From contig JASLEW010000115.1 in NCBI GenBank assembly GCA_030150965.1, positions 1-44,389 on the forward strand: a DNA stretch of 44,389 bases, read 5' to 3'. Every line of letters starts with the position of its first letter. The first letter of the stretch is position 1. This stretch comes from Thermoanaerobaculia bacterium (GTDB taxonomy: Bacteria; Acidobacteriota; Thermoanaerobaculia; Multivoradales; UBA5704). The notes beneath the pieces are model-generated. The model was not told the DNA's origin. It searched no databases and saw only the letters and a program-made list of their open reading frames with translations. Positions 7,309-31,940 of this stretch are shown piece after piece. The position numbers were made by a program, and so were the translations under genes.

Positions 7309-8544
7309 ATGAGCACGAGCGCGCCGCGCCGCACCCGCCAGGGCTTCGAGCGCCGCCTGCGGGCGCGCATCCTCGGCCCGTCGATCGAGGACCAGGTGGC
7401 CGAGGAGATCGAGCTGCACGTCGAGCTGCTGGCGCGGGAGCTGATGGAGGAAGGGATGAGCGAGGCACAGGCAAGGGCCGAGGCGGCCCAGCGCTTCCAC
7501 GACCGCGCCCAGGTGGAGGCCGCCTGCGCGGCCATCGCCCGCCGCAGCGAGCGGCGCTGGCGCTGGCGGATCTTCCTCGGCGAGCTGCGCGACGACATGC
7601 GCCAGGGCGTGCGGCAGCTGCTGCGCGCCCCCTCCTTCGCCGCCGTCGCCCTGCTCACCCTGGCCGCCGGGATCGGCGCCACCACCGCCATCTTCAGCGT
7701 CGTCGAGGGGGTCGTGCTGCGCCAGTTCCCCTTCGCCCATCCCGAGCGGGTGACGATCGTCTCGGAGCTGTGGAGGGAGGGCGACAGCGACTTCTCGGTG
7801 GGCAACTTCGCCGACCTGGAGGAGCCCGCCGCCCGCGGCTTCGCGGCGTTCGCGGCGCAGCGCTTCCTGCCGCTCAACCTGGCCGACGGCGACCATCCCG
7901 AGCGCTTGCTGGCGGCGCCGGTGTCGCACCGCTTCTTCGCCGTCTTCGGCGTCGAGCCCCGGCTCGGCCGCACCTTCACCGCGCGCGAGGACCGGCCCGG
8001 GGCGGAGCCGGTCGCGGTGCTCTCCGACGGGCTCTGGCGCGAGCGGCTCGGCGCCGACCCCGCCATCCTGCAGCGCTCGATCCACCTGTCGGGACGCGCC
8101 TACCGGGTGGTCGGCGTCATGCCGCCGGGCTTCGATCCCACCCTGTCGCACGAGGAGCTGTGGCTGCCGATCGCCTTCACCCCGGCGCAGCGCGCCCAGC
8201 ACGACGACCACTTCCTCGAGGTGGTGGGGCTGCTGCGGCCAGGGATCAGCCCGGCCGCGGCCCAGGCCGGGCTGACGCCGGCGATGCGGCGGGTGGCGCA
8301 GCTCCATCCCGAGGGCAACTCCACCCGCACCGGCGTGCACGTCGTGCCGCTGGCCGATAAGGTGATCGGTTCCTACCGCCAGCGCCTGCTCGTCCTCCTC
8401 GCGGCGGTCGGCCTGGTGCTGCTGATCGCCTGCGCCAACGTGGCGAGCCTGCTGCTCGCCCGCGGCTCGGGGCGGGCGCGCGAGCTGGCCATCCGCGCCG
8501 CGGTCGGCGCCGGCGCGGGGCGGATCGTGCGCCAGCTGACGTGA
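7309..8544 (+). CDS. ADOP/MacB-type FtsX permease, N-terminal portion (truncated)
   Basis: The order is an N-terminal helical prefix, TM1 (FAAVALLTLAAGIGATTAIF), and a MacB-like periplasmic domain. The first FtsX helix follows (LLVLLAAVGLVLLIACANVASLLLARG...RELAIRAAVGAG). The ORF stops immediately after that helix, and the remaining FtsX helices are missing. Confidence 0.75.
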   Translation: MSTSAPRRTRQGFERRLRARILGPSIEDQVAEEIELHVELLARELMEEGMSEAQARAEAAQRFHDRAQVEAACAAIARRSERRWRWRIFLGELRDDMRQGVRQLLRAPSFAAVALLTLAAGIGATTAIFSVVEGVVLRQFPFAHPERVTIVSELWREGDSDFSVGNFADLEEPAARGFAAFAAQRFLPLNLADGDHPERLLAAPVSHRFFAVFGVEPRLGRTFTAREDRPGAEPVAVLSDGLWRERLGADPAILQRSIHLSGRAYRVVGVMPPGFDPTLSHEELWLPIAFTPAQRAQHDDHFLEVVGLLRPGISPAAAQAGLTPAMRRVAQLHPEGNSTRTGVHVVPLADKVIGSYRQRLLVLLAAVGLVLLIACANVASLLLARGSGRARELAIRAAVGAGAGRIVRQLT

Positions 8545-9137
8545 CCCCGGAGTTCTACCTGCCGGTCGCCCAGGCGCCGCCCGAGGCCTGGACCTGGATC
8601 CAGCGCACCATGAGCCTGGTGGCGCGCGGCCGCGACCCGCGCCTCCTGGCCGGCGTGATGCGCGCCACGGTGCGCGGCCTCGATCCGTCGCTGCCGCTCA
8701 CCTTCAGCTCGCTCGGCGAGGCGCTGCGCGGCGCCACCGCGGAGGAGCGCTTCTACACCCTCCTGCTGTTCACCCTCGGCCTGCTCGGCCTGTTCCTGGC
8801 GGCGGTGGGCGTCTACGGCGTGATCGCCTACTTCGCCGGCCTGCGCACCCGCGAGATCGGCATCCGCATCGCCCTGGGCGCCAGCCGGCGCAGCGTCCTG
8901 GCCCTCATCGCCTGGCAGGGCGTGCCGCCGGTCGCGGGCGGCCTCGCCGCCGGCGCCGCCGGCGCCCTCGCCGCCACCCGCGGCCTCCAGGGCTCGCTCC
9001 ACGGCGTGAGCCCAACCGATCCGCTGACCTTCCTCTGCGTCATCCTGGTGCTCGCGGCGACCGCCGGCTGCGCCGTGCTCATCCCGGCCCTCGGCGCCAC
9101 CCGGGTCAATCCGCAGGAGGCGATCCTGCGGCCCTGA
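8541..9137 (+). CDS. ADOP/MacB-type FtsX permease, C-terminal portion
   Basis: It starts at a GTG that overlaps the upstream stop (GTGA) in a different frame. It encodes the end of a periplasmic domain plus a complete FtsX three-helix module (REIGIRIALGAS... LTFLCVILVLAATAGCAVLIPAL). Confidence 0.7.
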   Translation: MTPEFYLPVAQAPPEAWTWIQRTMSLVARGRDPRLLAGVMRATVRGLDPSLPLTFSSLGEALRGATAEERFYTLLLFTLGLLGLFLAAVGVYGVIAYFAGLRTREIGIRIALGASRRSVLALIAWQGVPPVAGGLAAGAAGALAATRGLQGSLHGVSPTDPLTFLCVILVLAATAGCAVLIPALGATRVNPQEAILRP

Positions 9138-10848: not shown

Positions 10849-12438
10849 TCACCGCGGCCGGCGGAGGCCGTGCGCGCTGCCGCGCGTTCCCAGCTCCCGG
10901 ACGTACTCCTCGATCTTGCCGCGGACGGCGGGATCGGTCTCGTAGCGCAGGCACTGCTGGTAAGCCTGGATGGCATCCTGGTTGCGGTGCAACCGGACGT
11001 AGACACGGCCGAGCTCACGATAGAGGCTGGCCCGCCCGGGCTCGATGGCGATGGCCTGCCGCAGGTAGCCGAGGGCCTCCTGGGGCTGCTCGTCGCCGAC
11101 CAGCTTTGCCAGGTTCAGCAGCGGGAAGATGAACCTGGGGTCGGCGGCATGGGCCCGCTGGTAGAACTCCTTCGCCCGCTCGGTGCTGCGCAGCTCGGCG
11201 CCGCCGCGGACGTACACCTTGCCGATGCCGTTGAGCGCCAGCGGCCAGTCCGCATGCAGCGCCAGCGCCTGCTGATAGCCGTCGAGCGCCTCCCGGTAGC
11301 TGCCGCGGGCGAACGCCAGCTGGGCATTGCAGTAATCGAGGCGGGCCGTCAGCTCGCGGTCTGCCGGATCGGTCTTGGCAAGGAAGCCGTACATCGCCGC
11401 CAGCCGCGGCCAGTCGGTGTTCTCGTCCGACTCGCTGTAGAAGCGCTGCAGGAGCGCATCCGCCTGCGGCCTGAGGACGGCGGAGATCCGGCGGCCGAGG
11501 TCCCGCAGCTCGGTGGAGCCGGGTTCCGCCTGGGCGAGCTGGTTGTAGAGCTCGACCGCCGAGCTGCCCGAAGACGACAGGAGATCGCCGTGCCCGATCG
11601 CCTCCAGCGCCCGCCCGTAAGGTCCCTGGCCGCCCACCCAGCGGACGAGCAAGTAGATCAGCACGGCGGCGGCGACGGCCAGGACGAACAGGGTCCGGCC
11701 GCTCCTCCGCCGTGGCGCCGGAGCGGCCCCGGAAGGCGCGGCAGCCACCGGCGCTGGTTGTGCCTGGGGTGGGGCCGGAGCGGCAGCCGCCGGCGCTGTC
11801 GCCTGCGCTCGCCGCGAAGGAGCGCCGGCACGCGCCAGGGTGGCGGCGACCGGCGGGGAAAAAGGTGCAACCCGCGGAGTTGCCCTCGCCTCCCCTGCTT
11901 CCGGTCCCTGCGCCGTCCGCAAAGACGGCGGCGCGGCGGCGGGCAGGGCGGCCACCGGCGGATCTGCCGGCGTTGCCGGAGCCAGGGGGGCCAGCGAGAT
12001 CGGCGGAGTGGTCGGGGCGGGGGTCTCGCCACAGAACGGACAGGAGGCGCCACCTAACAGCACCTTGGTGTCGCCGCCGACGCCGCGGCAGGCGTGGCTG
12101 GGGCCGCTGGGGCCGCGCCGGCACCAGGCGCACGCCGGCTCGATGTCGGCCGGGGAGACGACGCCGCACGGGCAGGCGAAAAGCGTCCCCGGCATGATGT
12201 TGCAGTGCCGGCATTGCAGATCGGCAGGCACCTTCGCCCGCCAGGCCACGGGGTCGGGCTCACAGGAACACAGATACCAGCTGTAGTCCTCTCCCTCCTG
12301 GCGGGGGAAGGTCCCCAGGCACCCGCCACCGCTCACATCCATCACCACGCGCGAGCCGTCGACCTCGTAGACCTGGGTGCCCCCGGCATCGGGGAGGAAG
12401 AAGGCCAGGAAGCGCCGGGCCGCTGCCGTTGCGGGCAT
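10849..12438 (-). CDS. zinc-ribbon / Pro-Ala-rich linker / single TM / TPR-repeat protein
   Basis: The N-terminus has Cys knuckles (CSC...CRHC, CPC...CAWC, CPFC). A TM segment (TLFVLAVAAAVLIYLLV) is preceded by RRRSGR, and the C-terminus has TPR-like repeats (ALNGIGKVY..., AKEFYQRA..., ALGYLRQAIAIEP..., AIQAYQQCL). The ATG at 12438 follows GAGAGGA; a GTG at 12453 would overlap the upstream stop as GTGA. Confidence 0.7.
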   Translation of the reverse strand: MPATAAARRFLAFFLPDAGGTQVYEVDGSRVVMDVSGGGCLGTFPRQEGEDYSWYLCSCEPDPVAWRAKVPADLQCRHCNIMPGTLFACPCGVVSPADIEPACAWCRRGPSGPSHACRGVGGDTKVLLGGASCPFCGETPAPTTPPISLAPLAPATPADPPVAALPAAAPPSLRTAQGPEAGEARATPRVAPFSPPVAATLARAGAPSRRAQATAPAAAAPAPPQAQPAPVAAAPSGAAPAPRRRSGRTLFVLAVAAAVLIYLLVRWVGGQGPYGRALEAIGHGDLLSSSGSSAVELYNQLAQAEPGSTELRDLGRRISAVLRPQADALLQRFYSESDENTDWPRLAAMYGFLAKTDPADRELTARLDYCNAQLAFARGSYREALDGYQQALALHADWPLALNGIGKVYVRGGAELRSTERAKEFYQRAHAADPRFIFPLLNLAKLVGDEQPQEALGYLRQAIAIEPGRASLYRELGRVYVRLHRNQDAIQAYQQCLRYETDPAVRGKIEEYVRELGTRGSAHGLRRPR

Positions 12439-12449
12439 CGGAGATCCTC

Positions 12450-13778
12450 TCACCCAACCTGGAGGCGGCCCTTGGTGACCACCCGGTATCCCCTGCCCGA
12501 CTCCTCCAGGCAGGGATGCTGGAGCAGCGAGACGGGGCCGTAGTTCGCTCCGTCCACATAGAACAGTGGCTCGAAGATGAACAGGTGCTGGCGGAAATAG
12601 GGCTGGTCGATCGCCGGCAGTGCGCGCACCTCGCCGTTTGTGGGGTCCTTGAAGACGCGGAAGCCCGGCTGCGACGGCGCTGGCGCCTCCACCAGCAGAT
12701 CCACCATTTTGTCGAACCGCATCATCCGGCTCGCCGGCGGGGCGAGACGCTGGAGGTCGGCGACGAGGCCGAGGTAGCTGTTCGCCGCGGGCTGCGGCGC
12801 GACGGAGTCGTCATCGGGTCCTGGCGCCGGAAGCGGTTCGTATCCCACGCCGCCTGAGGAGTCGGGCGTGGCGCCGCCGGCGCCGGCCGGGGACCGCGGG
12901 GCAGTTTGAATCCTGCGGTCCGGCGTCTCCCCCGGCCCGGCGCCGCGCTCCTCACGAATGGACAACAGCCGCCGGACCTTCTGCTCGGTCTGGTCCTGGG
13001 CCGTCCTGGCAGAGGAGTCCAGCTGATTGAGCTGCTCCCACAGCTTCCCCAGCTCCACCTTCAGCGTCTGCTCGCAAAGAATCACCCTGGCGCGGAGGTC
13101 CTTCCTCTCGGTCTGGTCGAGGAACTCCTTGGTCACGGCGAGACCACCCAAGACCAGGCCGAACACCGCAACCACCAGCGGCAGATTCGGCACCACCGGC
13201 AGGTTCGGCCCCGGCGGGGGTGGGGGCGTACCCTGCCCGCGGTTCTCCGGCGCTGAATCAGTTCCGCCCGCCGTCCCCCCTCCCTGCTGTGCGCCCGGCG
13301 GTGGCGGCGGCGTCCCTTGCAGCTCACCTGCGATCTCGTCGCGTTTCCGCTGGATCCGCGTGTGGAGATCGTCATAGGCATCCAGCCCCGAGCTCGTCTT
13401 CAGCTTGTCGTAGCTCTGTTCGAGGTTCTGTTCGAGCTCTCCGAGCCGGTCATCGAGATCCTTCAAGACCTCGGGGCCGTGGCTCGGCGCATCCGCGGTG
13501 CACGACTTGAAGCCCTGGTCGAAGGGGAGCAGCAGCGTGCGATCGGGGCTCGGCTTGGGGAGCGCTTCCACGCGGTCCGTCGCCGCACCCGCACCGTTCC
13601 GCGCTGACGATGCGCCGGCCGCCGTGCCCTTCGAGCCCGGCGACCGGTTCCCCGTCCGGTGCGCGGACGCGCCCTTCGTCCCGCCTCCCTGCACCTCCAG
13701 GCACACGGCCGCGGAGGCCCACAGGCAGAGGGCGAGCACCGGCCATGCCGCGCCCGCCCGGAAGCGACTCCGTGCCAT
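12450..13778 (-). CDS. bitopic membrane protein with signal peptide, coiled-coil segments, Pro-rich spacers and an uncharacterised C-terminal domain
   Basis: The ATG at 13778 lies 7 nt after GGAGGG and 1 nt after the upstream stop. The signal peptide is MARSRFRAGAAWPVLALCLWASAAVC, with heptad-like regions on both sides of a TM segment (LPLVVAVFGLVLGGLAVT). I recognise no family match. Confidence 0.65.
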   Translation of the reverse strand: MARSRFRAGAAWPVLALCLWASAAVCLEVQGGGTKGASAHRTGNRSPGSKGTAAGASSARNGAGAATDRVEALPKPSPDRTLLLPFDQGFKSCTADAPSHGPEVLKDLDDRLGELEQNLEQSYDKLKTSSGLDAYDDLHTRIQRKRDEIAGELQGTPPPPPGAQQGGGTAGGTDSAPENRGQGTPPPPPGPNLPVVPNLPLVVAVFGLVLGGLAVTKEFLDQTERKDLRARVILCEQTLKVELGKLWEQLNQLDSSARTAQDQTEQKVRRLLSIREERGAGPGETPDRRIQTAPRSPAGAGGATPDSSGGVGYEPLPAPGPDDDSVAPQPAANSYLGLVADLQRLAPPASRMMRFDKMVDLLVEAPAPSQPGFRVFKDPTNGEVRALPAIDQPYFRQHLFIFEPLFYVDGANYGPVSLLQHPCLEESGRGYRVVTKGRLQVG

Positions 13779-13779
13779 G

Positions 13780-16700
13780 TCAACGCCCTCCACTCATCAT
13801 CTGGAGCAGGGTGTGCCGCACCTCGCGGTGGAGCAGCGGGTACTCCCAGATCGCCCGCACCAGACTGGTGGTGTCCGGCGTGTGCTCGGAAGAGGCGGTG
13901 CCGTAGACGTCGAGGGCCGTCCTGGCAATCTCGTGGAGCGCGCTGTTCCAGGCCTCCCAGCCCATCTTGTCGAGCATCCGGGCCGCCGGACCGGTGTAGC
14001 CGCCGGTCTTCATCAGGTCCAGGGCCTGGAGCTGCCGGGCCACGCTCTCGGGGCCGGGGACCGGCTGGAAGGTCGCGGGGTCGGGGCTGACCCGCGCCAC
14101 CTTGATCGTTTCGGACCCGTCGCCATGTCCGTTGGGCGAGAGCCGGCCGACCTCGCGCAGGATGAAATCGTCGACCTGCTCCTTGCCGACCGACGAGTAC
14201 CACGGCAGCACGATCCTCGGCTGCGGCCCGCCGTCGGCGCCGGTCTGCCCGTCCGGCAGCACCGCCAGGTCGAAGCCGACGATGCCGCAGGCCGAGCTGC
14301 CGCTACCGCCCGCACCCTCGATCAGGCCGCCGGCGGCGACCAGGTCCTTCGAGTACACGGCCTGGCCGTCGAGGACGTAGCTGACGATGTCGTCCATGAG
14401 CCGGACCTTGACCTCGTCGGCCTCGGGCAGGCGCGGCCGGCTCTCCGGCGGCCCCTGGCCCTCCATCGCCCGCTTGAGCTCGCGGTACAGAGCCTTCACC
14501 AGGGTGGTGATCCTGGCCGCCGACCGCGCCACCCCGGCGTGCGGCAGGAGGCCCCAGCCGTTGCCGGCCAGCACCACGTAGATCGCCGACGGCAGCGGGC
14601 GCCCCGGGATCGGGGCCACGGCGAGGAGCAGCCCGTGGGTCAGCACGAGATGGAACAGCGACCGCATCCAATGCCCGGGCGCATAGCGGTCGATCTTCGG
14701 CGCCACCTCCTCCGCCACCGTCGCCTCGCGCAGGTCGAGCGTCCGGATGTCCCGGTTCTTCATGTACGACGGGCTCTTGTCTGGCATCATCTCGCCGACC
14801 CGCAGGGTGTAGAACTGGCGCAGCTTGCCGATCACCGCGTCGTCGCGCAGGCAGGCCAGGTCGGGGAACCAGGCCGGCAGCCCGGTCATCGACTCGATGC
14901 TCTTCTTGAACGTCGCGTACTCCGCGTCGGACGAGATGTCCTGGAAGAAGCTGAACAGCCGGTTGCCGGCCAGCACCATGCTGTCCAGGAAGCAGAGCTG
15001 GTCGCCCGGATGGATGCCGCCACCGGCCGGGCGTGGGCCGCCGGCGAAGACCGCATAGTCGGCCGAGCCTCCCCCCATGTCGATGAGGACCACGCGATGA
15101 CTCTCCGGCAGGTACTCCTCCTTCTTCTCGCGGTGCGAGCGGTTGTAGGCCCGGAAAACCGCCTGGCTCTCGTCGACCATGGCAATGTTGGGGCCTTCTT
15201 TGGGGTTCACGCCGCCTGGGCAAGCGAGCTCCTCGACTACTTCGACCGCGCGGCGCGCTGCGTTCTCGTAGAGCCTGGCCTCGATCGGCTTCATGCTCAG
15301 CGGATAGGTGAAGGTGTAGTGCGACGGCAGCGCGCCGGTCTTGGCGAAGACCTCGGCGGCAACGTGCAGCAGCAGCAGCTCCAGGAACGCCATGCGGAAG
15401 GCGCGGCGCCGCAGGTCCTGCTCGGGGGAGTCGCCGGGCGACGCCCACTTGAGGTTGTCCTCGACACCCCAGGGGAGGAGCGTGGAGTCGCGGATATCCA
15501 GAGCCAGCTGGCCCTTGGTGCCCAGCAGGTCGAAGACCCCGACGAGCCCGGCCAGGTCGGCGGCGGTCTGGCCGCCGGGGTTGGCCAGTCCCTGGAGCAG
15601 CGGCAGATCGCGGGCGAGCGCCAGGCGGTAGCCGAGGAGCGTCGGGAAGAACCCGCGGTGGAAGCCGCTGTCGTCGCCGCCGGCCTCCAGGAACCAGCCG
15701 GGCTGGACAGCCTGCGGCAGCCGGCGCTCGGGGCGCGGCTGCACCAGCGGCCCCGCCCAGGGGCGCAGCTCCAGCACCCGCGGCTTGGTGGCGCCGTCTC
15801 CCCTCAGGGCCACGCTGGTGTTGCTGGTGCCGAAGTCGATGCCGGCCTGGAGCCGGCTCTGCTGCTCGGCGTCGCGGAAGACGGCGCCGCTGAGGAAGAG
15901 CAGGCCGGCCTGCTGGGGCTCCTCGGCGCCGGCTTGGCCGGTCTGAAGGACCTCGGCCAGGCGCGGTGGGCTGGTCAGCCGGGTGAAGGTGTAGGTGTCC
16001 TGGGCGTCGTGCGGCGCCGCCGCCACGGCGGGCTCGGCGACGCCGTCCTCGCCGTGGAAGCGCAGCGACAGCCGGCCGCTCGCCGCCAGCGTCCGCACGA
16101 AGTACGCCGACCAGCGCGGCTCCCGCACGGCGCGGAAGGTCGGCCAGACGTCCGCCTGCGGCAGCCTCATCTCGTCGAGCTTCCAACCGATCAGGCGGGT
16201 CTTCCAGCTCACCTGCCGCAGTGCATCGAAGTCGGTCCCCTTGGGCAGCGGCAGGGTGAGGCGGCAGAGCGCCTCGGTGGCGGCGTTGGCGCCGACGGCG
16301 CCGGAGGCAAGCCGGACCAGCTCCCCCGGGGCGGCGATGAATTGCGGGAACAGCCGCAGCAGGTTGCTGTGGAGCGGCAGCAGCGGCGTCACGTCGTCGC
16401 GCTTGGTGAGCGTGCGCCGCCAGTCGGCGTGCGCCTGGTGGAGCAGGGCGGGGTCGAGCGCGTTGGCGCCTTCCAGGTAGAACAGCGCCCCGCCGACGGC
16501 CCGCAACCGCGCCGGCGCCTGGGGGCTCAGCGACAGCACCTGATGATCGCTCGGCACCTGGTACACCTGGCGGTTGCGGCCCAGCACCTCGACCACCTGG
16601 TTCTCCGGGTCGATGCGCACCGTGAGGTCGCAGAGACGCGAGCGGTCCGCGGTGCCGGGGAAGGCCAGCCGCGTCGCCCAGGGGTTCAAGGCGACATCGA

Positions 16701-17646
16701 TGCCTTCGGCGATGAACAGCACCGGCGTCGCGCCGCCTCCGGCCCCCGGCGCCAGGGCACGCAGCGGATAGTTGCTCCAGACCTCGGACTGATCGAGGCC
16801 GTGATATCGGTAGCCGAGGAAGCTCCGGGGCTCGCTCGTCAGCCGTTCCTCGACGGCCCGCCCGGACGCGCCGTACTGCGTGGCCAGCACCGTGCGCAGC
16901 AGCTCGACCGCCTGGTACAGGTTGCCGAAGAGGCTCCCCTGCTGGCTCTCGGCCAGTTGCTCGGCGAGCCTGCCGAGAACGGAATCGAAGGCTTCGGCGA
17001 AACCCTCCTGCCGTCCATAGTGCTCCATCAGCTGCGACAACCGGAACGTCACCGCCGCCGCTCCGGGCACCTGGAACTTCTCCAAGCCGGGATCTGCATC
17101 CGGCGTCGGCGTCTCCAGCGCGGGAAACACGAGGCAGGGCCCGTAGCAGGCGCCGACGACCGCGCCCCCGGAGCCGGTGCGCAGCACGGTCAGCCCGCCT
17201 TCGCCGTGCAGGCGGTAGAGGACCGGCGGCCAGCGCGCCTCGTCAGGCTCGATCGGCAGGCCGGCGTGCAGCGCCGGGTAGAGGTCCTCGTCGAGCCGCT
17301 TGAGCGTCTCGGCCGGCACTCGGACGGCTTCCAGGTCCCCCTGGAAGAGGGCGGCGAGCAGGCCCGCCCACACCTGGAAGTGCTCGGCGTCGGTCCGCCG
17401 CGGTTTCTGGTCGATCTCGGCGGCCAGCGTCTCGAGGAAGGTCTCGGCGTGTGCCCAGATGGTCGGCTTGGCCTCGCGTGCAAGGCCGCGGAACGCCGCG
17501 TCCAGCGGATCGAACAACCGGCGTTCGCGGATCGCGGTATCGAACAGGGTGAAGGCCCTGGTCTCGCCGGCCCGTGTCGCCGCACCGATGCCGTGCCAAT
17601 GATCGCGGCCGAACTTGGGCAGGAGAAACTCCAGCTTGTTGGACAT
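13780..17646 (-). CDS. giant actin/Hsp70-fold (ASKHA) ATPase-like protein with ~600-aa uncharacterised N-terminal region
   Basis: 1288-aa ORF; the ATG follows GGAGGGAG. The phosphate-1 motif is GIDFGTSNTS (nt 15814..15843). The phosphate-2 motif is VVLIDMGGGSADYAVF (nt 15046..15087). An adenosine-like motif is YVVLAGNGWGLL, and the terminal motif SKDLVAAGGL resembles Hsp70 DEAVAxGAA. Confidence 0.8.
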   Translation of the reverse strand: MSNKLEFLLPKFGRDHWHGIGAATRAGETRAFTLFDTAIRERRLFDPLDAAFRGLAREAKPTIWAHAETFLETLAAEIDQKPRRTDAEHFQVWAGLLAALFQGDLEAVRVPAETLKRLDEDLYPALHAGLPIEPDEARWPPVLYRLHGEGGLTVLRTGSGGAVVGACYGPCLVFPALETPTPDADPGLEKFQVPGAAAVTFRLSQLMEHYGRQEGFAEAFDSVLGRLAEQLAESQQGSLFGNLYQAVELLRTVLATQYGASGRAVEERLTSEPRSFLGYRYHGLDQSEVWSNYPLRALAPGAGGGATPVLFIAEGIDVALNPWATRLAFPGTADRSRLCDLTVRIDPENQVVEVLGRNRQVYQVPSDHQVLSLSPQAPARLRAVGGALFYLEGANALDPALLHQAHADWRRTLTKRDDVTPLLPLHSNLLRLFPQFIAAPGELVRLASGAVGANAATEALCRLTLPLPKGTDFDALRQVSWKTRLIGWKLDEMRLPQADVWPTFRAVREPRWSAYFVRTLAASGRLSLRFHGEDGVAEPAVAAAPHDAQDTYTFTRLTSPPRLAEVLQTGQAGAEEPQQAGLLFLSGAVFRDAEQQSRLQAGIDFGTSNTSVALRGDGATKPRVLELRPWAGPLVQPRPERRLPQAVQPGWFLEAGGDDSGFHRGFFPTLLGYRLALARDLPLLQGLANPGGQTAADLAGLVGVFDLLGTKGQLALDIRDSTLLPWGVEDNLKWASPGDSPEQDLRRRAFRMAFLELLLLHVAAEVFAKTGALPSHYTFTYPLSMKPIEARLYENAARRAVEVVEELACPGGVNPKEGPNIAMVDESQAVFRAYNRSHREKKEEYLPESHRVVLIDMGGGSADYAVFAGGPRPAGGGIHPGDQLCFLDSMVLAGNRLFSFFQDISSDAEYATFKKSIESMTGLPAWFPDLACLRDDAVIGKLRQFYTLRVGEMMPDKSPSYMKNRDIRTLDLREATVAEEVAPKIDRYAPGHWMRSLFHLVLTHGLLLAVAPIPGRPLPSAIYVVLAGNGWGLLPHAGVARSAARITTLVKALYRELKRAMEGQGPPESRPRLPEADEVKVRLMDDIVSYVLDGQAVYSKDLVAAGGLIEGAGGSGSSACGIVGFDLAVLPDGQTGADGGPQPRIVLPWYSSVGKEQVDDFILREVGRLSPNGHGDGSETIKVARVSPDPATFQPVPGPESVARQLQALDLMKTGGYTGPAARMLDKMGWEAWNSALHEIARTALDVYGTASSEHTPDTTSLVRAIWEYPLLHREVRHTLLQMMSGGR

Positions 17647-17667: not shown

Positions 17668-19491
17668 TCAGACGACGCCCTCTTTCACCGCGGTCAGGTG
17701 ATCGGCCATGTAGTTCCACAGCGACTGAAGATAGGCGATGCCCAGCGGGTGGTTGTCGGCGCGGTCCTCGGTCGAGACGCCGCGCAGGGCCTCGAGCCGC
17801 GAGGTGACGGGCACGTTCTTGCCGAGTGCCTCGGTGTCGACCCCCGCCAGGCGCCAGGCGGCGAACGCATAGGACGCCGGCGCCTTGTGCAGCAGGCCGC
17901 CGGTCTTGCCGAAACGGACCGGGTGGCGCAGCCAGTCGCGCATCAGCTGGGTGGTCTGCACCTGCTCCCAGCCGAGGGCGCGCGCGGTGTGGAGCAGCGC
18001 CTCGCCGATGTGGCGGGCGAGGGCGTTGAGGTCGTCGCGGAACTGCTCATAATGATCGGCGCTGACGAAGCGGTGCAGGGCCTGCAGCGTGTTGCGGGCG
18101 TTCTCGAACGACTGTCGCGTGGCGATGTAGGGCACCAGGCTGTAGGTCAGCCAGTTGAACCCGGCGAGCGCCGCGTAGAGCCAGCGGTCGGCGCTCACCG
18201 ACGGATCGAGCGCCAGGTCGGCCCAGCAGAGCGCGTCGCCCACGGCGCTGTCGTGGTGGTGCACGCCGAGCAGCTGTGTGCCGCTCTCCGGCGCCGCGGT
18301 CTTGGTGAAGAAATTGAGCGCCAGGCCCGCCGCCGCGAACTCCACGGCATGCAGGGGCGAGACCTGGTTGCGGCCGCCGTTGCACCAATGGATGCGCGGA
18401 CTGAAATGCGGATCGTTGGGATAGTCCGCCGGGTCCAGCTCCACCTCGCTGTAGCGGGTGGGATTGCGCAGACCGAGCACGTACAGCTCGTCGAACAGCT
18501 CCTGGCCGTGCTTCTGGTAGTAGTCCCAGCTCGCCACCGCTCGCCGCTCGATCTCCTCGGGCTTGGCATAGTAGCCACGCGCGATCTGCCGTATCTCGTC
18601 GGTCGAGAAGTCCTGCCCGAGGCCGGCAAGGCCGCGGCCGACATTGCGCGCCCGCACCCCCTCCAGGAAGTCCGCCTCGCTCTGGCCGCTCCGCCGCAGG
18701 AAGTCGTCGAGCGGCTCGGCGCCGTCTGGAAGCCACTGGTTCCCCCAGTCCAGCTCGCGCAGCGGCGGGGCCGGCGGGTAGAAATAGGGACCGAGCAGGC
18801 AGCCGGCGACCCGCCAGCTGTCGCGGTCGTGGTTGTCGTCGGCCACCTGGCGCACGATCTTCGAGATCACCGGGATCCCGGCCGCGCCGGTGCCGCCGTA
18901 CATGCTGCCGACCACGAAGACGCGCAGCCGCTTGCCGCGGAAGCCCTGCAGCAGGGCGACCAGCGGCGATTTCGCCTCCACCTTGAGCTCGCCCATGGAG
19001 GCGATGACCGCGGCGCCGATGAAGGGTTTCTGGAAGAAGCCGCGGTCGAGCGGCGTCGCGAGATCGGCCTCGCTGTAGAAGAGCCGCAGGATCTGCATGG
19101 CCTCGTTGTGCCCGGCCGGCCGGCTGGCCAGCTTGCCGGCCAGCGTTTCGACGCCGGGAGGCCCGGAGAGCGCGTCGAGCGGGTGGATCGTGACCAGGTC
19201 CTGGAGCTTGAGCGACCAGAGCCCGCGCGACGCCCCGTCGCCGCCGGTCTTGCCGATGGCGCGATAGCGGCTGACCGCCTCTTGCAGCGACGCGGAGCGG
19301 CAGGCCTTGTCGGGATCGATACGCACCAGGGTGAGGCTGTCGGCGGCGTTGGCCGCGGCATGACCGGCGGTGGGCTCCTGCGCCAGCAGCGGGATGCCCA
19401 GGCACAGCAGATCGATCAGCGCCTCGGCCACCTTGGCGCCGGTGCCGCCGACGGCGAAGACCACGTAGTTGGTGGCGGTGTCGTTGGCCAT
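17668..19491 (-). CDS. divergent tubulin/FtsZ-like GTPase
   Basis: The internal ATG at 19491 follows GGAGGG and overlaps the upstream stop (TGATG). The N-terminus reads NYVVFAVGGTGAKV. GFFQKPFIGA is T3-like. VFVVGSMYGGTGAAGIPVISKIV (nt 18877..18906 covers GSMYGGTGAAG) resembles the FtsZ T4 loop AGMGGGTGTGAAPVIA. The upstream 148 codons of the ORF are R/G/A/P-rich and overlap a better gene. Confidence 0.75.
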   Translation of the reverse strand: MANDTATNYVVFAVGGTGAKVAEALIDLLCLGIPLLAQEPTAGHAAANAADSLTLVRIDPDKACRSASLQEAVSRYRAIGKTGGDGASRGLWSLKLQDLVTIHPLDALSGPPGVETLAGKLASRPAGHNEAMQILRLFYSEADLATPLDRGFFQKPFIGAAVIASMGELKVEAKSPLVALLQGFRGKRLRVFVVGSMYGGTGAAGIPVISKIVRQVADDNHDRDSWRVAGCLLGPYFYPPAPPLRELDWGNQWLPDGAEPLDDFLRRSGQSEADFLEGVRARNVGRGLAGLGQDFSTDEIRQIARGYYAKPEEIERRAVASWDYYQKHGQELFDELYVLGLRNPTRYSEVELDPADYPNDPHFSPRIHWCNGGRNQVSPLHAVEFAAAGLALNFFTKTAAPESGTQLLGVHHHDSAVGDALCWADLALDPSVSADRWLYAALAGFNWLTYSLVPYIATRQSFENARNTLQALHRFVSADHYEQFRDDLNALARHIGEALLHTARALGWEQVQTTQLMRDWLRHPVRFGKTGGLLHKAPASYAFAAWRLAGVDTEALGKNVPVTSRLEALRGVSTEDRADNHPLGIAYLQSLWNYMADHLTAVKEGVV

Positions 19492-19970
19492 CAGCGTACC
19501 CTCCGCCACGGCATGTGCGTCAGGTGCGCCGGCAGGTGCAGGCCGAGGAAGACGGCGACGTAGATCACCGCGCCGCAGAGCAGCAACGACATCATGTTGG
19601 TGACGCCGATGAGCCGTGCCGAGTTGGGCTCCAGGAGATAGACGGCGCTCGCGTAGCAGGCGAGGAAGACGAACAGCCACAGCGCCAGGGCAAACCGCGA
19701 GCGCCGCGGGCCGTACGCCAGCTCGCGCGCCCCGTTGCTGCGGGCGACGCTTTCGCGCCAGAGCTTGAAGAGGAATGCCAAGATGGCCGCCACCACCGCC
19801 GCGAAGGTGATGGAGAGCGCACTGGAGACGGCGACCTGATGCGCCGCCGGATGGCCCTGGAACTCCGGCCGGATCAGGAAGTCGATCAGCCAGCGCAGCA
19901 CCGCACTGGACTCCGTCATCCTGGCGGGCTGCCACGCCAGGACCTCAAAGGCATCGATGATGGTGGTCAC
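19491..19970 (-). CDS. small polytopic membrane protein (3-4 TM)
   Basis: 159-aa ORF with a GTG start 6 nt after GGGAGGA. It has hydrophobic helices (VAVSSALSITFAAVVAAILAFLF, FALALWLFVFLACYASAVYLL, MMSLLLCGAVIYVAVFLGLHL). Its stop overlaps the start of the tubulin-like gene. Confidence 0.65.
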   Translation of the reverse strand: MTTIIDAFEVLAWQPARMTESSAVLRWLIDFLIRPEFQGHPAAHQVAVSSALSITFAAVVAAILAFLFKLWRESVARSNGARELAYGPRRSRFALALWLFVFLACYASAVYLLEPNSARLIGVTNMMSLLLCGAVIYVAVFLGLHLPAHLTHMPWRRVR

Positions 19971-20009: not shown

Positions 20010-21611
20010 TCAGACCTTGCTGGGCCAGATGACCAGGTACCAGGGCTTGAGCGTCTGCGCGGCGCTGCTGGAGTTGCGCAGCAACCCGGATACCAGGGCC
20101 TTCAGGTTCAGCAGCTGGTTCGCCGAGCCGGGTTTGGAATCGTCCTCCGTCGACCAGCTCTCGATCCACGCCGGCAGGCGCAGCCGCGCCGGATCGAAGC
20201 GCCCCTCGACCCGCAGCAGGGTGAGCGGCAGGTAGTCGCCGGACGGGGTCCAGCGCAGCACCAGGTGGCCGCCGGCTCCCGCCCCGGCCGCGCTCGGAGC
20301 AGTGGCCGGCGCGAAGGTCAGCGGTTCGCTCACCGTATCCGCCAGTGCCTCCTCGAATTGCAACCGTTTCAGCTGGTAGCCCGCGGGCGGCCAGGCGAGC
20401 GATTGGGCGCTCTCGTACCAGGCGCGGGGCCGCGCGACCTCGCGCACGGTGAAGCGCAGCTCGCTCGCCGCGTCCCTGGCGGCGCTGCCGAAGAAGGCGC
20501 GGCCGGCCTCGGTAAGCTCGATGTCGGCGGCGATATGGACCGCTCCCGGATGCAGGAAGTCGAGGTCCTGCCAGAGATACTGCAGCACCTGCACGTCCTG
20601 GCTGAGCGGGATGTCGTTGAAGTCGACGCGCCAGGTATCCTCGGTGGCCAGGCGCAGCGGGTTGGGCACCGGCGAGCCCCCGGCGACGGCGTCCTTGACC
20701 GCATAGGCCGCGGTGTCGAGCGCCGGCCGCGCGCGCTTGACCAGGGGGAGGGTCAGCGGCAGCTCCCGCACCAGCCGCGGATCGAGGCCGGCCTGCACGG
20801 CCTCGCGCAGCCGGTCCACCACCGGCTGCAGGTCCTCGCGGTTCTCGGTGAAGACGAGCAGCAGGAACGGCCGGTAGCGGGCGGGGTCGGCGGGATCGAC
20901 CGCGCGGTAGACGCCAGATTGGCCGCCGCCGCGCGTCTCGGAATAGACCGGGCCGGAGAAGCGGCTGCGGATGCCGAAGATGTGGACGCCCCAACCGCGG
21001 TCGATCAGGGCGGCGATCGCGGCATTGGCGCAGCGCGCGTCGGCGCCGGCGGCGCAGCGGGAATCGGCGACATCGAGCGGCAAGCTCTGCACGCCGTCGG
21101 TGACGAAGAGATCGACCGCGTTCGGCCGGTCCGCCGCGTGGGCCGCCGGCTGGGGGGCTTCGCCGAACGAGCGTATGGTCGCGGCGATGTCGCTCGCCGC
21201 CCCGTTGTAGAACCCGGCGGAGCGGGTCACGGTGAGCAGGGTGGGGGCGGCGGCCGGGGCCTGGCGCGCGGCGGCATCGACTCGCCGCAGCGTGAGCGGC
21301 TGCGCGGCATCCAGCTGATCCGCCATGGTCGCCACCGCCCGCAACGCGCGCGAGTACTCGAAGGAGCCTGCCGGGTCGGAGAAGCCCCGCATGCTGGCGC
21401 TCGCATCGATGTAAAGGACGGGAGCGCCGCGGCGCCGCGCGGGGCCGGCCGGCGAGCGGGTCCCCTCGGCGGTTTGGATCCAATCCGCCAGCGTGTGATG
21501 CCTGAACGTCGGATCGTCAGGCTGATGGATACAGCTGAAACATGCTGCCGCCGCCGCGGCGAGCGCTAGGGCCCCGACGCGGGCGCGATGTCGAAACGCT
21601 GGCAACGGCAT
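20010..21611 (-). CDS. von Willebrand factor A (vWA)-like domain protein, probable lipoprotein or secreted, with ~300-aa uncharacterised C-terminal region
   Basis: The signal is MPLPAFRHRARVGALALAAAAAAC. The MIDAS DxSxS motif is YIDASASM (nt 21390..21413), with a downstream LFVTDGVQS motif. The ATG follows GAGGAAGGG. Confidence 0.75.
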   Translation of the reverse strand: MPLPAFRHRARVGALALAAAAAACFSCIHQPDDPTFRHHTLADWIQTAEGTRSPAGPARRRGAPVLYIDASASMRGFSDPAGSFEYSRALRAVATMADQLDAAQPLTLRRVDAAARQAPAAAPTLLTVTRSAGFYNGAASDIAATIRSFGEAPQPAAHAADRPNAVDLFVTDGVQSLPLDVADSRCAAGADARCANAAIAALIDRGWGVHIFGIRSRFSGPVYSETRGGGQSGVYRAVDPADPARYRPFLLLVFTENREDLQPVVDRLREAVQAGLDPRLVRELPLTLPLVKRARPALDTAAYAVKDAVAGGSPVPNPLRLATEDTWRVDFNDIPLSQDVQVLQYLWQDLDFLHPGAVHIAADIELTEAGRAFFGSAARDAASELRFTVREVARPRAWYESAQSLAWPPAGYQLKRLQFEEALADTVSEPLTFAPATAPSAAGAGAGGHLVLRWTPSGDYLPLTLLRVEGRFDPARLRLPAWIESWSTEDDSKPGSANQLLNLKALVSGLLRNSSSAAQTLKPWYLVIWPSKV

Positions 21612-21736: not shown

Positions 21737-22309
21737 ATGCCCACCGCGCCGCGCGACGTGACGGTCCTCCTCAGGGAATGGAGCGAGGGCGATCCCGCGG
21801 CCCTCGAAGGGCTCATGCCGCTGGTCCTCGACGACCTGCGGCAGCTGGCGCGCCGGCAGTTCCGCGGCGAGCGCTCGGCGCACACCCTGCAGCCGACCGC
21901 GCTGATCAACGAGGTCTACCTGCGCCTCTACGGCCAGCAGAAGCTGCATTGGGACAACCGGGGGCAGTTCTTCGCCTTCGCCGCCACCCTCATGCGCCGC
22001 GTCCTGGTCGATCACGCCAAGGCCCGGCTGGCGGCCAAGCGCGGCAGGGGAGTGCCCAACCTGCCCCTGGACGAGGCGCTCGCCGTGCCCGCCGGCACGG
22101 ACCGCGGCGTCGACTACATCGCCCTCGACGAGGCGCTGAGCCGCCTCTCCGCGCTCGACGGCCGGCAGGGCCAGATCGTCGAGCTGCGCTTCTTCGTCGG
22201 CCTGACCAACGAGGAGATCGCCGAGCAGCTCGGCATCTCGGTGTCCTCGGTCAAGCGGGACTGGGACCTGGCCCGCACCTGGCTGTTCCGGGAGCTGAAG
22301 CGGCCGTAG
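21737..22309 (+). CDS. ECF-type RNA polymerase sigma factor (kinase-associated ECF family)
   Basis: The N-terminus reads DVTVLLREWSEGDPAALEGLMPLVLDDLRQLARRQF. The region-4 HTH is LTNEEIAEQLGISVSSVKRDWDLARTWL. Both are typical of the ECF family encoded next to Ser/Thr kinases. Confidence 0.9.
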   Translation: MPTAPRDVTVLLREWSEGDPAALEGLMPLVLDDLRQLARRQFRGERSAHTLQPTALINEVYLRLYGQQKLHWDNRGQFFAFAATLMRRVLVDHAKARLAAKRGRGVPNLPLDEALAVPAGTDRGVDYIALDEALSRLSALDGRQGQIVELRFFVGLTNEEIAEQLGISVSSVKRDWDLARTWLFRELKRP

Positions 22310-22419
22310 GCGGCGGCGCCGGGGCGCGAGCCCGCGGCGGCGGATTCGTCGCGTCGGAAGGAGAAGGCGGGGCGGGGAAGGGCCTCGGCCAGCCGCGGAC
22401 GGGGCGATGCGAGGTGACT

Positions 22420-24882
<2,463 letters not shown>

Positions 24883-25805: not shown

Positions 25806-25921
25806 CCAGGGCGCGGCCGGAGCGGCCGGCAGGACCGGCCATTGTTAAGCGCTCCACGTTCTGATGCATCGAGCCCTGTTGTCTTGTCGAGCTTCGTTTC
25901 GCGCTCTGTTGTCAAGCTCTT

Positions 25922-25955
25922 GCGATCCGGCCGCAAGGCGTGGCGGCCGGATCGC
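25922..25955 (+). terminator. strong hairpin downstream of the 25020..25805 gene
   Basis: A perfect 13-bp stem (GCGATCCGGCCGC at 25922..25934 pairing with GCGGCCGGATCGC at 25943..25955) closes an 8-nt loop. There is no clear T-tract. An AT-rich island follows. Confidence 0.4.
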
Positions 25956-26012
25956 CGATCTTCATCTGCGGGAACGTGCGTGTTAATATCACTGTTATTG
26001 TTTACGTTTGAA

Positions 26013-27212
26013 TTGAAAGCTTTCCGGCACCCGCGGGCGTCGGCGGCGCCCCGGCCGCAGCCGTTCACCGACCTCGTCCGCCGGCAGGCGGCGGATGAGC
26101 CCGTGGATGCCGCGCGGCTCGCCGCCGTGCGGGAGGCCCTTCGCCAGGCGCTGCGCCGCGAGCTGCGGCAGCGCGGCCTGTGGGAGAGTCCGCCGGCCTA
26201 CCTGGGCGTCCAGGGCTGGGAGAGCTGGCAGCAGCCGGCGGCGGGGCAGGGCGGAGCGTTTGCCGAGCTGCTGGAGGATTGCTACACCTTCGTCTTCGTC
26301 GACCGCCTGCGCAGCATGAGGGCCCAGCTCGCGGTCAAGGACAACATCGAAGGACTGGTCCTGCTCAACATCCGTCATTTCCTGCACGAGCGCCAGCGGA
26401 CCCACGATCCGCTGGGCTACCGCGTGTTCGAGGTGGTCTGGGCGGCGGTCGAGCGGGGCGTCGCCGCGGGCACCCTGGAGGTCGTCGACGGCGATCCGCG
26501 GATCCGCAACGACACCCTGCTCGCCTTCGATCCCGATGCGCTCCATCCGCCGGCGGCGCCGGCGGCGCTGGAGGACTGGGCCGCCCGGGTCGGCGACGAC
26601 CTGCTGCCGGACCTGGTCACCGCCACCGGCCGGCGCCAGGAGGAGACGGCGGCGGAGATCGCGCTGCGCCTGGCGCGGCTGCGGCAGGCGGGCGTGGTGG
26701 CGTTCCGTTTCAAGGCGCTGGTCGATGCCTTCAAGCGCGACGTGCGCCAACGGTGGGCGGCGATCCTGAGCGGCGAGGGGGGCGGCGGGATCGACCGCCG
26801 GGAGGACGCGGAGGGTGGTGCGGTGTGGATGGAGGCCCCGGGCGCGCGCTTCGAGGCGCAGGAGAGCTTCCGCGCGCTGGTCGCGTGCGTGCTGCGGTCG
26901 CTGGCGCGGCTCGAGGCGCCGGCGCGGACGCGGGCGCAGCTCGCCACCCTCTGGCAGTACCTGCGCCTGTACAGCGTCGAGGGCCTCGACCCGGAGGCCG
27001 AGGAAGAGGAGGCGCCGGCGGCCCCGGCGAAGAAGCGCCGCCTGCGCGCGGGCAGGCCCTCCGACCGGATGCTCGCCGACCGGCTGAAGATCCCCCGCGA
27101 GCAGCTGCCGCAGCTCTTCGCCACGCTCGGCGGCCTGGTCGCGGGCTGCCGGGCGAGCGGTGCCGTCCCCGGGCCGCGGCGGTGGGACGCGGCGGAGCAG
27201 GGGCCCGCATGA
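26013..27212 (+). CDS. hypothetical protein, possibly a highly divergent sigma-70/ECF-like factor (start uncertain)
   Basis: The ORF frame is open from 25842, but the sequence up to about 26012 crosses a hairpin and an AT-rich island. TTG 26013 and GTG 26103 are candidate starts. LLEDCYTFVFVDRLRSMRAQLAVKDNIEGLVLLNIRHFLHERQR is reminiscent of sigma region 2. SDRMLADRLKIPREQLPQLFATLGGL is reminiscent of a region-4 HTH. Confidence 0.5.
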   Translation: MKAFRHPRASAAPRPQPFTDLVRRQAADEPVDAARLAAVREALRQALRRELRQRGLWESPPAYLGVQGWESWQQPAAGQGGAFAELLEDCYTFVFVDRLRSMRAQLAVKDNIEGLVLLNIRHFLHERQRTHDPLGYRVFEVVWAAVERGVAAGTLEVVDGDPRIRNDTLLAFDPDALHPPAAPAALEDWAARVGDDLLPDLVTATGRRQEETAAEIALRLARLRQAGVVAFRFKALVDAFKRDVRQRWAAILSGEGGGGIDRREDAEGGAVWMEAPGARFEAQESFRALVACVLRSLARLEAPARTRAQLATLWQYLRLYSVEGLDPEAEEEEAPAAPAKKRRLRAGRPSDRMLADRLKIPREQLPQLFATLGGLVAGCRASGAVPGPRRWDAAEQGPA

Positions 27213-31762: not shown

Positions 31763-31940
31763 CGCCATCTCCTCCTGGTCCAGAACTGGCCCGGTGCCTG
31801 TGCGGCCGAGCTTAGCGCAGCCGGTCCCGCACGGAGCAGCGGCCGCGGGGGCCGCGGCTTCGCTTGTGTTCTCGCACAAGCTGTGCGACGATCCTTGCTC
31901 CCCAAACCGCAGCCCTCTTGCGCGGAAACCGGAGGAATCT

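Follow-up and report, generated by a model that had tools for sequence, protein, structure and literature searches.

The window analysed here is a stretch of 44,389 nucleotides from a Thermoanaerobaculia bacterium (contig JASLEW010000115.1; G+C content 73%), and its gene C, on the minus strand at 17668..19491, encodes a divergent, Tubulin_2-like GTPase of the tubulin/FtsZ superfamily. This description was based on the open reading frame (ORF), its 607-amino-acid (aa) translation, Pfam, an AlphaFold2 (AF2) model, and Foldseek. C is the third of six operon genes on the same strand, which we designated A to F. The peptides quoted in the original prediction, made from the sequence alone, were all found in C: VVFAVGGTGAKV at residues 10-21, GFFQKPFIGA at 151-160, and VFVVGSMYGGTGAAGIPVISKIV at 190-212.

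Read on the plus strand, the coordinates of C give no meaningful translation. The reading frame begins with ATG at 19491-19489, which follows a Shine-Dalgarno GGAGG by ~8 nt, and comprises 607 codons plus the stop codon at 17668-17670. Directly upstream lies gene B (19491..19970, minus strand), which encodes a 159-aa membrane protein with 3-4 predicted transmembrane (TM) segments. The TGA of B (19493-19491) and the ATG of C have one base in common (...CGC TGATG GCC), and the two genes are translationally coupled. The start codon of C had been described as embedded in the stop of a small membrane protein gene, which the 1-nt overlap confirmed; the proposed co-production of the two proteins gained support from the conservation across phyla of a small TM ORF at this position.

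G+C content at third codon positions (GC3) was 0.84-0.93 across the operon genes, and homologues of C with 71-22% identity kept the same synteny; C is therefore a real gene and not a chance ORF. Its closest genomic relative (63% identity) was found in a metagenome-assembled genome (MAG) of Thermoanaerobaculaceae (locus L006). At L006:10001-11816, the homologues of C (355 + 413 aa) and A (391 + 200 aa) each appear as two overlapping ORFs, and in locus L043 the C and D genes are broken up into many ORFs. These split C, A, and D ORFs are most likely long-read assembly frameshifts and not pseudogenes.

Gene C and the tubulin/FtsZ superfamily

Pfam analysis of 37 family members revealed matches to Tubulin_2 (PF13809) in 33/37, from several phyla (best 1.4e-9), and to Tubulin (PF00091) in 19/37 at E<=0.1 (best 7.5e-7). 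Three relatives scored above the Tubulin_2 gathering score of 27 (P0074, 38.2; P0150, 29.4; P0059, 27.6). An NCBIfam scan of C gave nothing beyond a chance-level match. The AF2 model of C, built with an alignment of 20 homologues, had a pLDDT (predicted local distance difference test score) of 79 and a pTM (predicted template modelling score) of 0.87. When this model was compared with the PDB using Foldseek, the best 50 matches were all tubulin or FtsZ (E 2e-4 to 1e-3), with a Foldseek probability of 1.0 for the FtsZ matches, and the nearest viral models in BFVD were phage tubulin, PhuZ, and FtsZ. Two sequence/profile searches of the PDB with C returned only FtsZ, CetZ, or tubulin/FtsZ chains, the best profile matches being the CetZ entries 4b45/4b46, and the T4 loop of C was aligned to that of FtsZ/CetZ in every sequence search. 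Another PDB profile search with the C family also aligned T4; it returned FtsZ/tubulin and, at similarly weak scores, unrelated chains as well.

Some of the comparisons speak against this placement. On its own, C scored below the gathering scores of both Pfam models, with 22.6 bits for Tubulin_2 (E 7.4e-5, residues 186-237 only) and 16.5 bits for Tubulin (gathering score 33). Foldseek TM-scores were 0.15-0.21 on the query and 0.35-0.42 on FtsZ, and because these values are modest, the fold match is only partial. We also compared the family by hhalign with E. coli FtsZ alone and then with a 5-sequence FtsZ alignment, in which four sequences were approximate, whereas that of E. coli proved to be 100% identical when checked; only the T3-S4-T4 region was aligned (E 0.005, low probability).

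The sub-threshold scores of C alone would suit the view that its resemblance to tubulin/FtsZ is superficial and that it adopts some other Rossmann-like (di)nucleotide-binding fold with Gly-rich loops, as would a 6-phosphogluconate dehydrogenase chain that equalled the tubulin/FtsZ score in one PDB profile search. This view is contradicted by the 50/50 tubulin or FtsZ structural matches, by the phage tubulins that lead the viral structure library, by the family-wide matches to two tubulin Pfam models, and by the order and spacing of T1-T2-T3-T4-T5, which fit the tubulin/FtsZ superfamily. We regard it as highly improbable and rejected it as essentially unsupported against the structural, Pfam, and motif-order evidence. 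Foldseek, with both the PDB and the viral models, assigned C no other Rossmann fold, so that the tubulin/FtsZ nucleotide-binding domain named in the original prediction is upheld by the family-level Pfam matches, the structural matches, and the invariant Gly-rich loops described below. The product of gene C is thus a very divergent nucleotide-binding protein of the tubulin/FtsZ superfamily, and the C family is a fringe of Pfam Tubulin_2 (the FtsZ-like 1, or FtsZl1, clade) and a new variant of it.

The earlier description of C as an orphan did not hold. An exhaustive profile search with C retrieved 1,929 cluster representatives at E<=1e-3, 1,594 at E<=1e-10, and 503 at E<=1e-30, the family lies at the edge of Tubulin_2, and some members carry the RefSeq name 'tubulin-like doman-containing protein', among them the copy of Gloeothece verrucosa PCC 7822. 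A word-indexed search found 21 relatives only, and a scan of one genome per species found 79 loci. The cluster members that we looked up in the protein collection were all unnamed or 'hypothetical protein'. Full-length relatives occur in Acidobacteriota (Thermoanaerobaculia, Pyrinomonadaceae, Blastocatellia, and Chloracidobacterium), with a few in MAGs labelled Clostridia, Heliobacteria, and Actinomycetota. Relatives of ~500 aa were found in Cyanobacteria, Bacteroidales, Lachnospiraceae/Oscillospiraceae, Sphingomonadaceae, Ignavibacteria, Saprospiraceae, and Salinibacter, and copies are also present on mobilizable cyanobacterial plasmids. A search of the phage collection gave no match.

Nucleotide-binding core and C-terminal domain of C

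Conservation in C was scored on two alignments, one of 37 sequences (from at least six phyla) and one of 171 family sequences, and secondary structure was assigned with DSSP on the AF2 model; all positions given for C are on the minus strand. Twelve residues were invariant in the 37 sequences (G15, G16, G18, G151, G159, S196, G199, G200, T201, G202, A203, and P207), and the same Gly-loop positions of T1, T3, and T4 were 97-100% conserved in the 171 sequences. The Gly-rich loops on which the original prediction was founded are therefore conserved among homologues.

The T1-like loop AVGGTGAKV (residues 13-21; 19429..19455), which contains the invariant G15, G16, and G18, follows strand S1 (7-14) and enters a helix (15-30). 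The T2-like RIDPDK (residues 57-62; 19306..19323) lies at the end of S2 (strand 52-58); its D59 and D61 are 98% conserved in the 171 sequences and, judging from the topology, would correspond to the 'NTD' (N43-T-D45) position of FtsZ. The T3-like segment DRGFFQKPFIGA (residues 149-160; 19012..19047), with G151 and G159 conserved at 100%, was placed by hhalign onto GLGAGANPEVG of FtsZ, with low probability. Strand S4 and the T4 signature loop VVGSMYGGTGAAGIPV (residues 193-208; 18868..18915) carry S196, G199-A203, and P207, which are 98-100% conserved. The T4 loop has the variant form GGTGAxG (GGTGA[ASC]G in the family) in place of GGGTG[ST]G, and G205 is also conserved. Regular-expression searches agreed with the original prediction that neither GGTG loop of C fits [SAG]GGTG[SA]G; neither fits GG[GA]TG[ST]G, and the T4 signature is non-canonical. 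The end of S5 and the T5-like LLGPYFYPP (residues 232-240; 18772..18798), with P235 at 100% and Y236 at 99%, may be likened to the T5 'KPF' of FtsZ.

Beyond T5, a lineage-specific insertion spans about residues 240-310 (18562..18774) in the acidobacterial subfamily. It is absent or short in distant relatives, and the corresponding alignment columns (~350-430) are gaps in cyanobacterial, Bacteroidales, and Clostridia members. A second insertion of the acidobacterial branch lies at about residues 31-51. Family-wide conservation continues in an H5/S6 block (Y325, Y337, and G340) and in the block WCNGGRNQVSPLHAVEFAAAGLALNFFT (residues 369-396; 18304..18387), which includes a helix at 382-396 in the model. 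In the 171 sequences, this block has G372 at 95%, Q376 at 99%, E384 at 94%, A388 at 91%, and F394 at 91%; position 378 is N in 95% of the sequences and S in the C protein of the window. We take the block to be a putative T6/H7 equivalent.

Between the H7-like helix and a long helix at 434-455, which is the place of T7 in FtsZ/tubulin, lies LCWADLALDP (residues 421-430; 18202..18231), with the family motif W-x-D-L-P at 423-427. W423 was conserved in 69% of the 171 sequences, D425 in 76% (D+E 78%), and L426 in 67%, and position 427 was P in 89%. The WxDLP motif is a candidate T7 loop. The remaining ~170 aa (residues 434-607; 17671..18192) make up a C-terminal domain that is alpha-helical for the most part according to DSSP, and they are poorly conserved beyond the acidobacterial subfamily.

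The core motifs of the family are T1 GGTGAK, T2 DxD, T3 GFxxxPxIG, T4 GSxxGGTGAxGxP, T5 PYF, QxNP...E...A...F, and WxDLP, and the tubulin-type core of C is about residues 1-430, interrupted by the two lineage-specific insertions. The division into a ~215-residue GTPase and ~390 unrelated residues, as first proposed, needs revision, since conservation runs on through T5, H5/S6, the T6/H7-like block, and WxDLP to ~430. The accompanying statement that the C-terminal part is unlike the C-domains of FtsZ and tubulin applies to residues 434-607 only; the stretch ~215-430 belongs to the core, with the insertion at ~240-310.

The A-B-C-D module

ORFs were predicted in 84 loci, and the six operon proteins of the window served as seeds for iterative profile searches. 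A D homologue was the next same-strand gene after C in 71/71 loci with at least 3.3 kb of downstream sequence, so that the adjacency of C and D is invariable in this set. Natural C-D fusions in which both regions are complete were found in P0023 (MDA2925659.1), P0037, P0040, P0091, and P0165, which are drawn from acidobacterial and distant branches alike; in locus L031, one ORF spans both C and D. Of the 75 loci that extend 2 kb or more upstream of C, 71 had an A homologue; it was on the C strand in 61 loci and divergent in cyanobacteria. Homologues of B were found in 45 loci, and an ORF of 138-220 aa with 2-4 hydrophobic (predicted TM) segments was directly upstream of C in 23/24 distant loci checked.

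Gene D (13780..17646, minus strand) encodes 1,288 aa (1,080-1,330 aa in homologues), with an N-terminal region of ~560 aa of unassigned fold followed by an ATPase domain of the acetate and sugar kinase/Hsp70/actin (ASKHA) superfamily, as judged from PDB profile matches. This domain spans about residues 600-1110 (14317..15849, minus strand), as delimited by motifs and by alignment to the phosphate-2 motif of MreB. Its motifs are phosphate-1 DFGTSNT (604-610), connect ESQAV (826), phosphate-2 DMGGGSAD (856-863; family form IDxGGGxxD), and adenosine GNGWG (1028). D604, G606, T607, E826, D856, G858, G859, G860, D863, and G1028 were invariant in 37 sequences. The family profile built from 37 D homologues matched MreB (1.9e-9 and 2e-7), an actin-family protein (3e-5), the exopolyphosphatase Ppx (7e-5), Hsp70/DnaK (from about 3e-4), and FtsA (1e-3) in the PDB. 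Pfam matches of the homologues were weak and to ASKHA families only (MreB_Mbl in 14/37, FtsA in 12/37). The D protein of the window alone had no Pfam match, and a single-sequence PDB search with it gave nothing useful. By these motifs and profiles, D carries an actin/Hsp70-fold ATPase domain; the original prediction for C had overlooked this obligate partner.

Gene A (20010..21611, minus strand) encodes a predicted lipoprotein of 533 aa with a signal peptide and Cys27. C27, D69, and D172 were conserved in at least 90% of 32 sequences, and D69, S71, T171, D172, and G173 were invariant in 12 sequences, forming the motifs DxSxS (69-73) and TDG (171-173). Such motifs are typical of the metal ion-dependent adhesion site (MIDAS) in domains of the von Willebrand factor A (vWA) type, and they suggest a vWA-like domain in A, after which come beta-rich domains. 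VWA Pfam matches were weak and occurred in 4/32 homologues. The AF2 model of A had a pLDDT of 78, and its top Foldseek matches were beta-sandwich domains; a profile search of the PDB with A gave nothing, and a single-sequence PDB search gave nothing useful. A 611-aa homologue of A (P0179; L048:7697-9532) is annotated by NCBI as 'DUF2085 domain-containing protein' (PF09858), which suggests that a lipoprotein-like A is fused to a membrane domain in this lineage.

Downstream of D, gene E (12450..13793, minus strand) overlaps the end of D and encodes a 447-aa membrane protein with an N-terminal hydrophobic segment, a Pro/Gly-rich linker, a TM segment at 196-225, and a conserved C-terminal domain; E homologues follow D in 48 loci, cyanobacteria included. 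Gene F (10849..12453, minus strand), whose start overlaps the end of E (12450-12453), encodes 534 aa with a Cys-rich N-terminus, a TM segment at 251-276, and C-terminal tetratricopeptide repeats (TPR) that match Pfam TPR families. Its N-terminus contains several CxxC-like pairs, resembles a zinc ribbon, and is followed by a long Ala/Pro-rich linker. In the acidobacterial form of the operon F comes last, and its homologues follow E in acidobacterial loci. In Pfam, the six operon proteins gave only subthreshold Tubulin_2/Tubulin, DUF2304, and TPR matches, and NCBIfam gave, besides the chance-level match of C, only TPR-type matches for F.

The four-gene module A-B-C-D is thus conserved across at least six phyla, with E and F added in Acidobacteriota. 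The whole module is also found on plasmids in L085 (NC_014503.1, Gloeothece verrucosa PCC 7822) and L086 (Picosynechococcus sp. PCC 7003), where a divergent A precedes a gene for a small TM protein, then C and D, and finally two genes resembling E; the gene that follows D in L086 bears the annotation 'prefoldin domain-containing protein'.

Comparison with known systems and possible functions

We consider it reasonably probable that C, a divergent GTP-binding protein of the tubulin/FtsZ superfamily encoded by the third gene of a conserved module, acts together with D in a membrane-tethered GTPase-ATPase assembly. C would bind GTP and join D in a single physical GTPase-ATPase complex, which B (and E/F) would tether to the cytoplasmic side of the membrane. 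Assembly of this complex may be driven by nucleotide, in loose analogy to FtsZ held by the actin-like FtsA. The assembly might scaffold or remodel an envelope component, or it might signal across the envelope to or from lipoprotein A, which is possibly vWA-like and extracytoplasmic. A wider proposal, which we advance tentatively and hold to be possible but doubtful, is that A-B-C-D is an undescribed, widespread two-NTPase machine, that is, a composite membrane-anchored cytomotive or scaffolding assembly that couples two filament folds and is connected through the membrane with a lipoprotein.

Several results pull in the other direction. The candidate T7 loop of C depends on one Asp, D425, which is 76-78% conserved, and C lacks an NxDxxD/E T7 motif. 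Residues 434-607 had no Pfam or PDB sequence match and no likeness to FtsZ_C or Tubulin_C. The model of A had no significant Foldseek match, with vWA domains appearing only at E 0.3-0.5. The 28 distant loci contributed 117 flanking proteins, in which every Pfam or PADLOC family occurred twice at most, and because of this the distant flanks offer no functional hint and no defence-island signal.

FtsZ and FtsA, a tubulin-superfamily GTPase and an actin-superfamily ATPase, act together at the cytoplasmic membrane face. The module resembles this pair in that C is encoded beside the ASKHA protein D, whose profile matches FtsA and MreB. It differs in that family-level homology is absent, the gene order is reversed with the tubulin-like gene first, D is three times the size of FtsA with its ~560-aa N-terminal region, and C lacks the C-terminal domain and C-terminal peptide of FtsZ. 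In addition, some cyanobacteria carry the module as accessory genes on plasmids, and C and D are fused in some lineages, whereas we know of no FtsZ/FtsA fusion. In CetZ and TubZ/PhuZ, T7 and the activation domain can be recognised, filaments arise without another protein, and the partner, where there is one, is a DNA-binding adaptor (TubR) and not an ASKHA protein; the likeness of C to them consists of weak sequence and structure matches (4b45/4b46; phage tubulin and PhuZ in BFVD).

The closest sequence model of the C family, Tubulin_2 (PF13809), is the FtsZl1 family of Makarova & Koonin 2010 (PMC2875224), with which it was equated in PMC9871819. Like FtsZl1, C has an FtsZ-like GTPase core at its N-terminus that is divergent and interrupted between T1 and T4 by family-specific inserts, a helical C-terminal region without FtsZ_C/Tubulin_C, and membrane-associated operon partners, including an upstream gene that possibly encodes a vWA protein. 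In the parts of the 2010 supplement available to us, FtsZl1 proteins are 763-1,208 aa (760-1,200 aa in round numbers) and carry a long coiled coil, whereas members of the C family have 480-640 aa without a coiled coil, and the AF2 model of the 607-aa C contains no long coiled-coil segment. The FtsZl1 partners given in those parts are COG2304 vWA proteins, a novel GTPase, OmpA/MotB, and families B1-B9; an ASKHA protein of ~1,100 aa is not among them, and a 480-640-aa family with an ASKHA partner is absent from the tables there (PMC2875224). Furthermore, T6/H7-like and T7-like motifs are recognisable in the C family, whereas they were reported as not identifiable in FtsZl1 (PMC2875224), and C falls below the Tubulin_2 gathering score. 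An association with MotA/OmpA-MotB was also reported for FtsZl1 (Makarova & Koonin 2010, PMC2875224). MotB/ZorB-like proteins adjoin the module in 2/28 distant loci, which is too rare to call.

The features in which C departs from FtsZ would also be compatible with a filament-free arrangement in which C is a non-polymerising GTP-binding regulatory subunit of D, and D is an Hsp70-like chaperone or translocation motor for the biogenesis or insertion of A, B, and E. Neither the C-terminal activation domain of FtsZ/tubulin nor a canonical T7 is present in C, D has the Hsp70-type motifs DxGTxxT and DxGGGTxD and a profile that matches DnaK/Hsc70, and C-D fusions suit a 1:1 enzyme complex better than a homopolymer; FtsZl1 was earlier suspected of not forming canonical filaments (PMC2875224). 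However, the best matches of D are MreB and actin rather than Hsp70, an Hsp70 substrate-binding domain, DnaJ, and GrpE were not detected in the module, and the conserved WxDLP loop of C stands at the T7 position. We judge this arrangement improbable.

Kaur et al. 2020 (PMC7159879) described DO-GTPase/GAP1-N2 conflict systems with tubulin or HSP70 themes, for which NTP-dependent assembly was proposed. In these membrane-proximal operons, vWA proteins accompany tubulin-domain proteins whose C-terminal domain is helical, and HSP70-fold proteins appear in other versions; by this likeness the module could be a regulated biological-conflict system of the same type (anti-invader defence or programmed death), in which a tubulin-like and an Hsp70-like protein form a threshold-setting, NTP-dependent multimer triggered by an invader. 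The patchy spread of the module over several phyla and its presence on mobilizable cyanobacterial plasmids are consistent with such a role, as are RelE/antitoxin genes and transposase fragments near locus L003. So is the recurrence, in the acidobacterial subfamily, of TPR-CHAT (caspase-like protease) proteins of 940-1,220 aa located 3-8 kb upstream of the module in ~12 of ~30 loci (L041:770-4378, L043:387-3992, L021:847-3672, L048:1469-4795, L018:3758-6781, L042:2503-5586, and L044:625-4206; also L001 and L002), which could point to a context of regulated proteolysis or conflict.

On the other side, the core DO-GTPase and GAP1 of the Kaur systems were not found in the module by Pfam on A-F, and none of the eight proteins of the window that were scanned for a Walker A motif (A-G plus the ECF sigma factor described below) contains one. 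PADLOC-DB v2 gave no match for A-F at E<=0.1, a variable effector domain is absent, and the composition of the module is constant across phyla. The flanks of the 28 distant loci contain no enriched defence family (at most 2/117) and no enriched GTPase family, no phage copies were found, and the window is an ordinary chromosomal context. Moreover, the tubulin and HSP70 themes were described as not overlapping in the published systems (PMC7159879), whereas C and D always occur together, and those systems were reported from Firmicutes/Actinobacteria, whereas the module occurs in Acidobacteriota, Cyanobacteria, Bacteroidales, Clostridia, and Sphingomonadaceae. A conflict role is unlikely in our estimation. 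It is not fully exclusive of the membrane-tethered C-D assembly that we favour, with which it and the non-polymerising arrangement partly overlap. In the literature accessible to us, no description of the module came up: searches for a module of tubulin-like and actin-like or ASKHA proteins led only to Makarova & Koonin 2010 and Kaur et al. 2020, and the supplement of the latter contained no relevant text.

The window has no TPR-CHAT gene; the position is held by genes that diverge from the operon, namely an extracytoplasmic function (ECF) sigma factor (21737-22309, plus strand) and a Ser/Thr kinase-long TPR protein (22390-24882, plus strand). The module in L001 is likewise flanked by this sigma factor (60% identity) and by a TPR-like protein of 847 aa, and the divergent sigma factor and kinase/TPR-like gene may be a dedicated regulatory pair of the module. 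The operon is otherwise surrounded by genes for a GGDEF sensor, a MacB/FtsX transporter, an amidohydrolase, and a molybdopterin oxidoreductase. The sensor (3112-6495, plus strand) has 1,127 aa and combines beta-propeller repeats of the Reg_prop type with a Y_Y_Y domain and a diguanylate cyclase domain (GGDEF). The transporter region (7309-9137, plus strand) consists of two overlapping ORFs, a MacB_PCD gene (7309-8544) and an FtsX-domain gene (8541-9137), which may represent two genuine genes or, alternatively, one MacB-type permease that is split or frameshifted. A 1,123-aa protein (28508-31879, minus strand) had weak cytochrome P460 and cbb3-type cytochrome c matches only, and the ORFs at 25842-27212 and 31794-33074 had no Pfam match.

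The tubulin fold and the actin fold define two ancient filament-forming NTPase families, and FtsZ-FtsA is, to our knowledge, the only well-known bacterial pairing of the two. The module is a second, unrelated pairing, strictly conserved in at least six phyla, fused in several lineages, and tied to a membrane protein and a lipoprotein. Part of the C family is already recognised as 'tubulin-like' in databases; what specialists in prokaryotic cytoskeletons would not expect is that C and D are paired and even fused. With ~1,900 cluster representatives, the C family is large enough for a profile model of its own. The module is also a natural system for asking whether proteins of the Tubulin_2/FtsZl1 type polymerise and how their GTPase is activated without a classical activation domain. 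Its function could reveal a new bacterial use of cytoskeletal folds, with envelope remodelling, trans-envelope signalling, and conflict as candidate roles, and if the proposal of a composite assembly is true, the module would represent a new class of prokaryotic cytoskeleton-like system.

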